Positions 1-57,558 of a stretch of 64,000 nt of DNA are shown one piece after another; positions within the stretch are counted from its first letter, which is position 1; each line of letters opens with the position of its first letter. The notes under the pieces are model-generated. The model searched no databases, had not been told where the DNA came from, and saw nothing but the letters and a program-made list of their open reading frames with translations. A program made the position numbers and the translations under genes. The stretch comes from an uncultured Candidatus Rokubacteria bacterium (lineage in GTDB: Bacteria; Methylomirabilota; Methylomirabilia; Rokubacteriales; DASRDR01), in assembly GCA_963805625.1 (NCBI GenBank), contig CAWDVE010000021.1:338024-402023 (forward strand), written 5' to 3'.

Positions 1-711
1 GCCGAGCGCCGCGGCGGACCAGCGCGATCGGTCCAACCCGCGGTCCCCGCGAAGCGAGAGGCGTCGCGCGTACGGGTAGACGCGCCCGCGCAGGTCGAGC
101 ACGGCGTACTCGTCCGAGTAGTACGTCGCCCCCGCCCGGACCAGGTCTGCGACGAGCCTGCTCTTGCCGCTCATGCTGGGTCCGGGCAGGAGGATCGCCC
201 GCCCGCGCCAGCCCACAACGCCGGCATGCACGAAGACGCGCCGCGGCGCTCGCTCGGCGACGTAGAGTTGGAGGTCGGACTCGAGGCTGTCAAGGATGCC
301 TTCCAGGGTCCGGTCCCGGGTCACGGGCGCCGTGTCACCCCAGAGGCGATGCCACCCCTCGCGGCGCGGCACGACCAGCGAGTACAGGCGATCGACGATC
401 CGCGCGTCGGCCAGGCGCCAGCCGGGCGGTAGCCGGTCGCGCAGCGACGCCAAGACCGACAGTTCGTTCGCACGGACCCCGATCCGCAGCCCGTAGGCCG
501 TGATGGCGAAACCCAGCCGACACGCGGGCGGCCCCCAGCGTCCCGAACGTGGAGTCCCGGGCTTCGGGGCGACGCAGAGATCCTTGAGCCCGCGGCCGAT
601 ACGGGGAAGCTCCGCGGCCAGGCAGACGATCGAGGCGAACCCCCTGCCCTGGCGGACGGCAAGGCAGGGTCCGGAACACGATGCCGGCGCAGGCGCCGGC
701 TGACCCCTCAC
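1..711 (-). CDS. HPr kinase-related (HprK-like) P-loop kinase, 3' end off-window
   Basis: Not in ORF track. Manual translation is open from GTG 711 (GTGA overlap with the upstream stop): ...LESDLQLYVAERAPRRVFVHAGVVGWRGRAILLPGPSMSGKSRLVADLVRAGATYYSDEYAVLD... (HAG motif, Walker A GxSxSGKS, SDE motif). Confidence 0.8.
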   Translation of the reverse strand, partial: MRGQPAPAPASCSGPCLAVRQGRGFASIVCLAAELPRIGRGLKDLCVAPKPGTPRSGRWGPPACRLGFAITAYGLRIGVRANELSVLASLRDRLPPGWRLADARIVDRLYSLVVPRREGWHRLWGDTAPVTRDRTLEGILDSLESDLQLYVAERAPRRVFVHAGVVGWRGRAILLPGPSMSGKSRLVADLVRAGATYYSDEYAVLDLRGRVYPYARRLSLRGDRGLDRSRWSAAALG

Positions 712-2264
712 GTCCCTGGCGGGTGGGCCCGCGGGCTCTCGATGATCGGCGCGACGCCGGCCAGCGCGAGGACGTTCCGCGCCCCGATTCCGATCGTCGA
801 GGCGACCCGGCCCTCAGCGTCTATCAGCACGGCCGACGGCGTTGCGCGGGCCTCGAAGACCTTGCTCACCTTCAAGCCCTCGTCGAGGACGACGGTCGAG
901 CGGAAGCCCAGAGCGCGGTTTGCCTCGACCGATCCCGAGGAGACCACGAGCAGACGGGGGGCGCCGCGGGGGGGCTCGGCCTCCCACCGGTGAAGATCCT
1001 CGGCCATCCGCTGGCAATACGAGCAGTCCGGATGCCAGAAGACGAGAAGGGTGTCCCGTCCGCGGTAGTTGCGGAGGTCGATCATCCGGTTGTCGAGGTC
1101 GGGAAGCGTGAATGGCGGCGCGAGCTGGCCGGGGCGGGGCGGCCCTCCGGCCAGCACCGGCAGCGATCCGTGGCTCTCCCGGCCGTTCGTCCGCGCCGGG
1201 AACGGGGCACCAGGTGAGGCGACGGCGTGGGCAACAAGGGCGCGGATGGCAGCGTCCCCGAAGACGACCGGGCCTGCGATCCGCCCGGTTCGCCCGATGA
1301 GGACCGCGCCGGGAGTCCACTGGGCGCCGTAGGCGTCGGCAACTTCACTCCGCGCCTGGAGGAGCATGGCCTCGGACGACATCCCACCGAACTTTGTCCG
1401 GTTCTCGTCGGTACTCCCGGTCGTGACCAGCGCCAGCGTGAACGCCTCCGCGTGCTCGCGCTGCCAGCGGGCGATCTCGGGCGCGAGGGCAGTGCAGGGA
1501 TCACAGGCCGGCCCCACGAAGAGAAGCAGGACCGGCCGGCCAAGTCCAAGGAGGGTGCCGAGCGAGCGTGTCTCACCGTCGCCAGCGGGCAGGGAGAAGG
1601 CCGGCGCCAGCGCGCCCACCGGGAGGGCACCCACCGTGAGGCCCGTGTCGAGTTGTCTGCCCTCACTGGGCGCGCCGATTCCCTGTTCCACCCGTGCCTC
1701 GATCGCGTCGAGCCGGGTCAGGACCCGCGCCTGCTGGATGAGCAGGCGCAGCACCATCCCGACGACCGTGCCAAGAACCGCCAGCGCGGCGAGGCCCAGG
1801 ACGGCCAGGGTGCGCTCGGCGGGCGGCAGCGCACCGAGCCAGCCCACGACGCTCAGCCCGGAGTCGTTCCATCCGGCACCGACAACGAACACGGCCAGCG
1901 CGCCAAGAACAACGTTCCGGAGCAAGGTCGGCCAGCCCACTGGGGCCGAGCGCAGCTGGCCAAAGCAGCGGCACTCGGGCCGCTGGCCCCGCGCGAGACT
2001 CAGCGCAATGGCGATCGTGAACGCCACGAGAAGGCCGAGGGCCCCGAGCCCACCCCACCACGCGGAGGTGCGCGGAACAAGGGCGGTGGCGACAGACAGC
2101 TCTGCGGCCGGGAGAGCCACCGCGAGGGGTCCCACGAGCCAGGCGGGCAACCCGAATCCGGCAAGGCCCTCGCGGGCGCCGGTCCGGTCCAGGAGCTTGG
2201 TGACGCCGGCAACCGTGAACACGCCGGCGAGCGCGAGTCGGGCACTGAGGAGGACCGCGTCCAT
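708..2264 (-). CDS. MauE/DoxX membrane domain fused to two TlpA/MauD-like thioredoxin domains
   Basis: N-terminal TM helices with CRCFG (MauE-type); APAFSLP...LLFVGPACDPC and APPFTLPDL...FWHPDCSYC CxxC domains. Confidence 0.85.
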   Translation of the reverse strand: MDAVLLSARLALAGVFTVAGVTKLLDRTGAREGLAGFGLPAWLVGPLAVALPAAELSVATALVPRTSAWWGGLGALGLLVAFTIAIALSLARGQRPECRCFGQLRSAPVGWPTLLRNVVLGALAVFVVGAGWNDSGLSVVGWLGALPPAERTLAVLGLAALAVLGTVVGMVLRLLIQQARVLTRLDAIEARVEQGIGAPSEGRQLDTGLTVGALPVGALAPAFSLPAGDGETRSLGTLLGLGRPVLLLFVGPACDPCTALAPEIARWQREHAEAFTLALVTTGSTDENRTKFGGMSSEAMLLQARSEVADAYGAQWTPGAVLIGRTGRIAGPVVFGDAAIRALVAHAVASPGAPFPARTNGRESHGSLPVLAGGPPRPGQLAPPFTLPDLDNRMIDLRNYRGRDTLLVFWHPDCSYCQRMAEDLHRWEAEPPRGAPRLLVVSSGSVEANRALGFRSTVVLDEGLKVSKVFEARATPSAVLIDAEGRVASTIGIGARNVLALAGVAPIIESPRAHPPGT

Positions 2265-52036: not shown

Positions 52037-52072
52037 AAAACGCCGAAAGCCGCCGGCGTTGCCGCCGACGGC
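52037..52072 (-). terminator. Intrinsic terminator downstream of tRNA-Asn
   Basis: GCCGTCGGCG-GCAA-CGCCGGCGGC followed by TTTCGGCGTTTT. Confidence 0.55.
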
Positions 52073-52083
52073 CCTCGCGCGAT

Positions 52084-52420
52084 TGGCTCCCCGGGCAGGA
52101 CTCGAACCTGCAACCTCGTGGTTACAAGGGCCCCCGCGTTTCCACGGGGCTTGGACTATCTCATCCCCGTAGGCGCCCGGCGGGCGCCCGTAGGGGGCGG
52201 GCACTTCCCCCGGCGCTCGACGGTCGAGCCCCGGAGTACGACCTCGCGGTCTAGTCTCTGCACGGTCCCCCAGGCTGCTCCCGCCCGAGGGCTTCGCTCA
52301 GGGTTCCCCTATCCTCCCGGACGTAGGGTTCCCTGAATTCGCCCGCTTTTCCATCCCGCCTTTCGGCCGGGACGCTGCCGACTCGACAGCCACTTGCTCT
52401 ACCGGTTGAGCTACCGGGGA
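52084..52420 (-). tRNA. tRNA-Asn(GTT) split by an intron: 5' exon 52420-52386 (35 nt), 3' exon 52124-52084 (41 nt)
   Basis: Joined exons give TCCCCGGTAGCTCAACCGGTAGAGCAAGTGGCTGT^TAACCACGAGGTTGCAGGTTCGAGTCCTGCCCGGGGAGCCA, a 76-nt cloverleaf with CCA. Confidence 0.93.
52125..52385 (-). ncRNA. Group I self-splicing intron (261 nt, IC3-like)
   Basis: 5' exon ends in U with a U.G pair in P1 (GCTGT^CG AGT CGGCAGC); P/Q AATTCAGGGAA...GGAACCCTGAGC; R CAGAGACTA; S GAGATAGTCC; GAAA loops; terminal G. Confidence 0.9.
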
Positions 52421-52467
52421 ATGCGCGCATTGTACCTCAGCCCCGCCAGCGGCGGAACTTCGGCCGC

Positions 52468-56052: not shown

Positions 56053-56326
56053 GTGGCCGTGCACCCGCCGTCGATGACCGGCGTCCTGCGATCTCCCCGA
56101 AGAGACAGCTCCAGCCAGGGAATCCCACGGCACACGAGAGGGTCTGCGGACCGTTGCTCCCTTCCGGGCCTGGCGGGGTTGGCAGATTCTCGTCGCGTGG
56201 GGCCCAGCCTTCATCACCACTCCTCGGGGCTCAATTCAACACGCCGGCACCTTGGGCGGGGATTCAGCCTCGCTGGAGCGGATTGCGAGTACAGGGCACC
56301 GCTACCTCCCCGCCTAGCACGGCCAC
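56053..56326 (-). ncRNA. ffs: Large bacterial SRP RNA
   Basis: GCCGTGCTAGGCGGGGAGGTAGCGGTGCCCTGT 5' Alu region; CAGGCCCGGAAGGGAGCAAC helix 8; paired termini; upstream of dnaX. Confidence 0.92.
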
Positions 56327-57212: not shown

Positions 57213-57289
57213 TGGTGCGCCCAGCAGGATTCGAACCTGCGACCTTCGGATTCGTAGTCCGACGCTCTATCCAACTGAGCTATGGGCGC
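57213..57289 (-). tRNA. tRNA-Arg(ACG)
   Basis: TCGGA-CTACGAA-TCCGA anticodon arm, CCA. Confidence 0.96.
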
Positions 57290-57308
57290 GCCCAACCGCT
57301 CGGAGGAA

Positions 57309-57402
57309 TGGCGGAGAGGCCGGGATTCGAACCCGGGACCAGGCTCAACACCCGGTAACCGCTTAGCAGGCGGTTGCCATCGGCCGACTCGGCCACCTCT
57401 CC
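57309..57402 (-). tRNA. tRNA-Ser(GCT)
   Basis: ACCGC-CTGCTAA-GCGGT anticodon arm, long variable arm, CCA. Confidence 0.95.
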
Positions 57403-57469
57403 GTGCGCAGCGCTTCATCTTCCCGGTGGGCCGAACCTTTGTCAACTCAGCGGGCTGCCATGGGACGAA

Positions 57470-57558
57470 TGGCGGAGGGGGAGGGATTCGAACCCCCGAG
57501 GGCTTGCGCCCATACCGGTTTTCAAGACCGGCGCCTTCAACCGCTCGGCCACCCCTCC
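57470..57558 (-). tRNA. tRNA-Ser(TGA)
   Basis: CCGGT-CTTGAAA-ACCGG anticodon arm, long variable arm, CCA. Confidence 0.95.

Follow-up and report, generated by a model that had tools for sequence, protein, structure and literature searches.

A split tRNA-Asn gene lies at positions 52084-52420 on the minus strand of the 64-kb window, by which we mean the whole stretch of DNA analyzed. When its exons are joined, ARAGORN recognizes a 76-nt tRNA-Asn(gtt) with a cloverleaf, a GUU anticodon, a U1-A72 pair, G73 and CCA; features such as G73 and U1-A72 we take to be identity elements of bacterial tRNA-Asn(GUU). The intervening sequence consists of 71% G+C (Table 1). The host, which the original prediction had placed outside the Patescibacteria, is likely a member of the Methylomirabilota, possibly of the order Rokubacteriales judging by size and base composition, and has a genome of 7.3 Mb with about 70% G+C. 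Taken together, the data presented below make us confident that a group I intron, likely a self-splicing one, interrupts a tRNA-Asn(GUU) gene here, with U35 and U36 on either side.

Table 1. Features of the split tRNA-Asn locus in the window, and same-site introns in records with archaeal titles (positions within those records)
Feature	Position	Strand	Remarks
Possible -35 hexamer	52452-52457	-	spacing of 17 nt to the -10 box; matches weakly, varies in relatives
-10 box TACAAT	52429-52434	-	8 nt before the tRNA
Exon 1 of tRNA-Asn, 35 nt	52386-52420	-	tRNA positions 1-35, last base U35; from ARAGORN on joined exons and intron-less orthologs
Group I intron, 261 nt	52125-52385	-	terminal G at 52125; IA-like; no homing-endonuclease ORF
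P1	52374-52390	-	internal guide (52374-52379) pairs with exon bases 31-35 and intron base 1; 5' splice site at the U35.G wobble
P2 with GAAA loop	52353-52373	-	
P3-P7 pseudoknot core	52153-52346	-	P3, 52340-52346 with 52197-52203; P7, 52252-52258 with 52153-52158
P4-P5-P6-P6a domain	52262-52336	-	receptor-like motif in P5
P7.1 and P7.2	52208-52251	-	P7.1, 52240-52251; P7.2, 52208-52236; inserted between P7 and P3'
P8	52165-52196	-	receptor-like motif
P9.0 and P9 hairpin with GAAA loop	52126-52152	-	P9.0, 52150-52152 with 52126-52128; places the terminal G
Exon 2 of tRNA-Asn, 41 nt	52084-52124	-	tRNA positions 36-76; G73; encoded CCA
Terminator-like G+C hairpin	52037-52081	-	weak T-run
Intron in L050 (Pacearchaeota)	642-974		
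Intron in L061 (Pacearchaeota)	476-974		
Intron in L154 (Woesearchaeota)			locus cut off

The junction is defined by comparison. Eight intron-less orthologs from the same order (L024-L031) read GUU and run uninterrupted across the predicted junction, and because these empty alleles cross it directly, both splice sites are fixed without any structural model. The rejoining of the two exons into a 76-nt tRNA, the 35/36 insertion point and the Asn(GUU) identity, all read by the original prediction from the sequence alone, are thereby corroborated. Its warning that tRNA scanners may overlook the gene was also justified, as this gene is not among the five tRNAs that default ARAGORN reports in the window.

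Every helix of a group I intron can be drawn in the insert with standard base pairs. P7 contains the G-binding G-C pair and the bulged A, and P5 and P8 each contain a receptor-like motif. The covariance model search proposed by the original prediction matched RF00028 (52132-52396, model positions 1-253, E 4.7e-7) at this locus and nowhere else in the genome, but the score of 37.4 bits stays below the gathering score of 50. When the model was applied to nine homologs, eight exceeded the gathering score (73.5-101.3 bits), with L061 giving no match. A profile HMM built from 65 introns that occupy this site in other lineages likewise matched this single place in the genome (E 1.8e-24), and the nearest copy outside the phylum shows up to 74% core identity. 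The shared site and the homologous core place the intron in the family of tRNA-Asn 35/36 introns. The region also folds better than each of 200 shuffled versions (z -4.5).

Comparative data support this fold. Across 22 relatives, 94.7% of the alignment cells are paired, in comparison to 36-49% in slid controls, and compensatory changes occur in 26 of 84 pairs (shuffle mean 7.9; none of 500 shuffles as high). Related sequences can beat shuffle controls without any structure and kinship inflates such tests, and they were therefore repeated on 69 same-site introns from many phyla from which close kin had been removed. In this set, the first intron base forms a Watson-Crick pair with the base preceding the guide G in 53 introns (shuffle mean 22.9, maximum 36 in 10,000 shuffles), and Watson-Crick pairing is seen in 58 and 64 introns at the two positions of P9.0 (shuffle means 42.1 and 31.3, maxima 55 and 44). 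Paired cells also exceed the shuffled values in P3 (447/469 vs. 375), P4 (398/402 vs. 289), P6 (197/204 vs. 161), P8 (255/268 vs. 215) and P9 (426/477 vs. 282). Invariance of the P7 strands, the guide motif and the terminal G is not counted as evidence in this wide set, for which these elements served as search anchors; four of 83 introns (L061, L084, L087 and L107) were missed by the anchors and are absent from both alignment and tree. No excess over shuffles was detected in the wide alignment for P5, nor for P6a at a register that was off by one; in the right register, six of the nine P6a pairs covary among the 22 relatives. A P10 pairing with the 3' exon, which is optional in group I introns, is not supported in the one register tested (11-35 of 69 introns per pair). 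Within the family, core pairs are conserved to 98.6%, junctions to 99.4% and loops to 60.7%, and such a conserved core amid drifting loops is expected of a working ribozyme. The group I assignment, which had been proposed from the P1 U.G pair, the core motifs, the GAAA tetraloops and the terminal G, thus extends to a full fold with compensatory changes.

The IC3 and IA subgroups differ in the segment between P7 and P3', which contains no helices in IC3 introns and harbors P7.1 and P7.2 in IA (IA2-like) introns. In the window intron, this segment comprises 48 nt that fold as two hairpins, corresponding to P7.1 and P7.2; approximately 90% of their cells are paired in the 22 relatives, with little covariation. 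By these definitions, the modeled architecture is IA-like, and an assignment to IC3 was rejected due to the inserted helices. The IC3 models that the original prediction had named as a test are therefore probably not the right ones. At the same tRNA site, the introns of L050, L115 and L153 lack the insertion and have a spacer of 2 nt, in comparison to 31-74 nt in most others, and thus IC3-like and IA-like architectures both occur at one site. The classical IC3 tRNA introns of tRNA-Leu(UAA), fMet, Ile(CAU) and Arg(CCU), exemplified by the 205-nt intron of Azoarcus pre-tRNA-Ile (PMC13168695), resemble the window intron in their anticodon-loop location, compact size, helices P2 to P9, P9.0 and exon-guide pairing in P1, but the latter resides in a different tRNA and at a different position, and has two helices between P7 and P3'. 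The established subgroups fit bacterial introns poorly, according to a further study (PMC11878797).

The tRNA-Asn gene is a solitary gene of the core chromosome, with recR, ybaB, dnaX, the SRP RNA gene and serS lying a few kb away, and is followed downstream by a convergent gene for a cysteine-hydrolase-like protein. Of 22 intron-bearing loci, 21 retain the TACAAT box described in the original prediction, as TACAAT or TAGAAT, 7-10 nt ahead of the tRNA. The downstream terminator is a putative one: a hairpin of -27 to -43 kcal/mol is likewise found in 21 of these 22 loci, but its T-run is weak. The gene would be transcribed alone and from its own promoter. In the same neighborhood, a large bacterial SRP RNA of the Alu-domain type is encoded at 56057-56322 on the minus strand, just upstream of dnaX (183 bits).

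The split gene appears to be the sole source of tRNA-Asn in this organism. The 63 intron-less tRNAs called by ARAGORN in the genome cover the 19 other amino acids and include none for Asn, and neither BLAST with the exons nor a scan of the genome for the anticodon-loop motif detected a further copy. Under relaxed settings, ARAGORN gave 1044 low-threshold calls, among them six Asn(gtt) and two ambiguous candidates, which were rejected as they lack tRNA consensus features. The assembly is 99.91% complete with 6.26% contamination and consists of 28 contigs, such that a further copy may lie outside the assembly. The single-copy status considered by the original prediction, and the count of tRNA-Asn genes that it recommended, are in agreement with these data, and because the genome yielded no further credible tRNA-Asn, splicing is probably essential for Asn decoding. 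TGT and GatB are present in the genome, and no AsnRS was found over its cut-off. Considering the presence of GatB, the lack of an AsnRS match over the cut-off and the U1-A72 pair, Asn-tRNA would be made by the indirect route, i.e., by transamidation, and queuosine would be introduced by TGT only after splicing, because U33-G34-U35 are buried in P1 beforehand; both steps follow established knowledge on these enzymes. Elsewhere in the window, a tRNA cluster consisting of Arg(ACG), Ser(GCT) and Ser(TGA) at 57213-57558 recurs at the start of contig C15 (2-348), reflecting either duplication or contamination.

A search for the split gene in 61 genomes, including the unpublished G038 and G055, revealed the intron at the same point in 13 of 14 genomes of the genus and in five of six other genomes of the family, i.e., in 18 of 20 family members. 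In the remaining two family genomes, G013 and G019, neither the intron-bearing nor the intron-less form was seen. Weak matches in G013, in G051, on contig C37 of G021 and on contig C243 of G010 were rejected as not being tRNA-Asn loci. L076 (92% identity over 1023 bases including flank) and L128 (92% over 422 bases), the closest records that bear a name, have the titles Candidatus Methylomirabilia and Methylomirabilota and fall inside the intron clade of the family with a support of 100/99, from which the likely phylum of the host was derived. In other families of the order, represented by 40 genomes of which 11 were inspected, eight tRNA-Asn genes are uninterrupted, and three (G024, G045 and G025) are interrupted at the same point by a divergent intron. 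The intron cores of G024 and G045 are 93-94% identical to a Nitrospiraceae copy and 68-70% identical to the window intron, while a comparison of their exons over 65 positions gives 0 and 2 differences from the window and 11-12 from the Nitrospiraceae gene. This contrast between introns and exons would fit with homing into a resident tRNA gene. The tree and the identity values suggest separate gains within the order, but one common clade for the order was not rejected by an AU test (p 0.113). A second, divergent intron-bearing tRNA-Asn is present in G002 on a 4.4-kb contig (C188; L032:1452-1784); its exons differ from those of the window at 12 of 65 positions and it possibly represents a contaminant.

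Beyond the order, a pattern scan of GTDB genomes, in which the pattern was restrictive, provided 120 loci from three of 64 parts and an estimated total of about 2,600 stretches. From this sample, 89 loci are tRNA-Asn 35/36 introns, comprising 71 full genes and 18 cut-off copies with a profile match; the 31 loci that were dropped are 23 intron-less tRNA-Thr genes, one tRNA-Lys intron and seven loci without a profile match. According to the record titles, the 89 copies belong to Patescibacteria (33), Cyanobacteriota (9), Acidobacteriota (8), Nitrospirota (4), Bacillota (4), Pseudomonadota (4), Omnitrophota (3), Elusimicrobiota, Methylomirabilota, Planctomycetota, Ignavibacteriota, Aminicenantes and delta proteobacteria (2 each), Binatota, Margulisiibacteriota and Chloroflexota (1 each) and archaea (3), with six titles naming no taxon. 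Some titles look wrong, because three copies titled Gammaproteobacteria group with Patescibacteria and three titled Eubacteriales group with Aminicenantes. The original prediction had considered a host outside the Patescibacteria remarkable, but 56 of the 89 sampled introns come from records not titled Patescibacteria, and this view cannot be upheld.

Several individual loci of this sample deserve mention. Filamentous cyanobacteria (Microcoleus, Tychonema, Phormidium, Floridaenema and Hormoscilla) contribute nine tRNA-Asn introns (L039, L049, L051, L055, L073, L079, L082, L105 and L140), which come in addition to the classical cyanobacterial Leu and fMet introns; the seven included in the tree form one clade. 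The tRNA-Lys(UUU) gene of a Rhodobacterales record (L151) contains a 213-nt group I-like intron at 35/36, and a Saccharicenans record without a profile match (L131) shows an altered P7 3' strand before exon 2, possibly indicating a decayed or partial intron.

An ORF for an HNH-type protein is found in 15 of the 71 full copies (L041, L057, L061, L064, L069, L080, L086, L087, L088, L097, L109, L110, L114, L115 and L116; ORF-bearing introns of 423-590 nt). It starts in the P1 loop, comprises approximately 90-175 codons and in many cases extends into the ribozyme core; the ORF of L061 is truncated, and the one scanned against PF01844 matched over the cut-off. Within the same order, G025 has an HNH-bearing copy that is split over two contigs (L033/L034). 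The window intron contains no HNH-type ORF, its longest stop-free frames being 69 and 64 amino acids long and on the opposite strand, and tblastn with five HNH queries gave no match in the genome. In line with the original prediction, which had noted no ORF in the insert, the homing endonuclease that marks a mobile group I intron is absent from it.

Three same-site introns occur in records with DPANN titles. The exons of L050 and L061 have a G1-C72 pair, which they alone share among the 71 full copies, and encode no CCA; the gene upstream of both has its best match, below the cut-off, to the archaeal KH-domain protein arCOG04150. L154 scores 97 bits and, like L061, contains an HNH-like sequence. 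Spanning about 1.9 kb or less per locus, this local context favors the view that these would be real archaeal genes. Group I introns have been reported in Pacearchaeota and Woesearchaeota before, and all 39 of that study reside in rRNA genes, with LAGLIDADG proteins as the intron-encoded nucleases (Nawrocki et al. 2018; PMC6125680). The three introns described here share the archaeal lineages but interrupt tRNA-Asn, and L061 and L154 contain HNH-like sequences instead. A single Pacearchaeota tRNA case was ascribed to mis-binning in Williams 2020 (bioRxiv 10.1101/2020.01.27.920355), while the Pacearchaeota loci in our sample adjoin an archaeal gene and have archaeal-type exons. On balance, we somewhat favor a scenario in which one HNH-driven intron family invaded position 35/36 of tRNA-Asn in roughly 1% of prokaryote species from more than 10 phyla, entered this order more than once and crossed into DPANN archaea.

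For the window intron, the splicing steps can be proposed from established group I chemistry. Exon bases 31-35 would pair with the internal guide to form P1, and a free guanosine held in P7 would attack after the U.G pair. With P9.0 holding it in place, the terminal G would then occupy the G site, and exon 1 would be ligated to exon 2, such that the anticodon loop would exist only once this two-step, guanosine-dependent self-splicing is completed. The intron probably originated as a selfish element whose spread relied on an HNH homing nuclease with its reading frame in the P1 loop, and the copy of this family would have lost the nuclease and been inherited vertically. It would be kept intact because any loss short of an exact deletion would ruin the sole Asn decoder.

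Other explanations were weighed against this model. ARAGORN -i, whose use the original prediction had advised, calls the locus tRNA-Asp(gtc) with a 252-nt intron at position 38, and the gene could accordingly be a tRNA-Asp(GUC) with a different splice site; the insert could also have been created during assembly. The Asp reading was rejected since the intron-less orthologs have a GUU anticodon, and since the base following U35 differs among homologs and covaries with the guide, which identifies it as intron sequence; moreover, an ordinary tRNA-Asp is already present on contig C16. The insert is found again, in diverged form, in 18 other genomes of the family, which argues against an artefact, and both explanations are hardly credible. 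Very improbable is also that the locus represents a dead tRNA gene, with the working tRNA-Asn missing from the assembly. The draft state of the genome and the six Asn(gtt) candidates among the relaxed calls would be in line with this idea, but those candidates do not resemble genuine tRNAs, the exons are within a few bases of the intron-less orthologs, the core is preserved while the loops drift, and no intron-less tRNA-Asn is present in any of the 20 family genomes.

A true intron that requires a host protein, or one whose splicing rate regulates Asn decoding, e.g., in response to GTP or Mg2+ levels, is an unlikely option, although less so than the other two. The high G+C content and the long stable peripheral helices could trap misfolded states, and 18 of the 20 genomes of the family keep the intron although it encodes no nuclease. 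Nevertheless, the intron has its full set of catalytic elements as well as two GAAA loops and two receptor-like motifs, arguing against the need for a protein, and the intron-less orthologs within the order indicate that the intron is dispensable to the lineage. Its persistence is also possible without any benefit, since only exact deletion removes it. Unassisted self-splicing remains the preferred explanation.

The 35/36 site in tRNA-Asn and tRNA-Asp has reportedly been described in a Patescibacteria preprint by Nakagawa et al., with introns that are said to be missed by standard tools, to self-splice in vitro and to belong mostly to IA; outside Patescibacteria, the site is reportedly called rare. 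The 33 sampled copies with Patescibacteria titles share site, guide and core with the window intron, which differs by its host, a likely Methylomirabilota member whose genome comprises 7.3 Mb with about 70% G+C. The reported rarity contrasts with the majority of sampled copies carrying other titles, and the HNH ORFs set part of the sample apart as well. By its title, the preprint deals with a new tRNA site of group I introns in Patescibacteria (Nakagawa, Amikura, Omae and Suzuki; bioRxiv 10.1101/2025.07.03.662931; cited in PMC12641178). The original prediction had listed four classic interrupted bacterial tRNAs, namely Leu(UAA), fMet, Ile(CAU) and Arg(CCU), but this list is outdated, as 21 types of intron-split bacterial tRNAs, 17 of them new, are given in Williams 2020 (bioRxiv 10.1101/2020.01.27.920355). 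Those introns resemble the present one in being group I introns with U(-1) and a terminal G, in occupying several anticodon-loop positions and in being miscalled by ARAGORN. The literature search, which did not extend to Williams's table or the text of the Patescibacteria preprint, both of which may bear on this point, retrieved no paper that describes such an intron in Methylomirabilota, nor one in which a group I intron of an archaeal tRNA is accepted. Thus, the kind of element, a group I intron at tRNA position 35/36, is already known from other bacteria, while its breadth across phyla looks new.

It is this breadth, together with the HNH gene and the archaeal copies, that adds interest beyond the single locus. 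Applying the fraction of 89/120 to the estimated 2,600 stretches gives approximately 1,900 loci of this kind in 185,579 species genomes, a rough value that counts stretches rather than species. Because such loci are estimated to be widespread, many reports of a missing tRNA-Asn may be artefacts. If the broader scenario is true, authentic archaeal tRNAs would be matured by a ribozyme and not by the splicing endonuclease. Both the archaeal tRNA introns and a small HNH nuclease with the anticodon region of tRNA-Asn as its putative target are directly testable, and the very G+C-rich, compact, IA-like ribozyme is easily tested in vitro. For the bacterial family itself, an essential single-copy tRNA is likely dependent on a ribozyme in the entire family, and standard annotation drops this tRNA or labels it as Asp.
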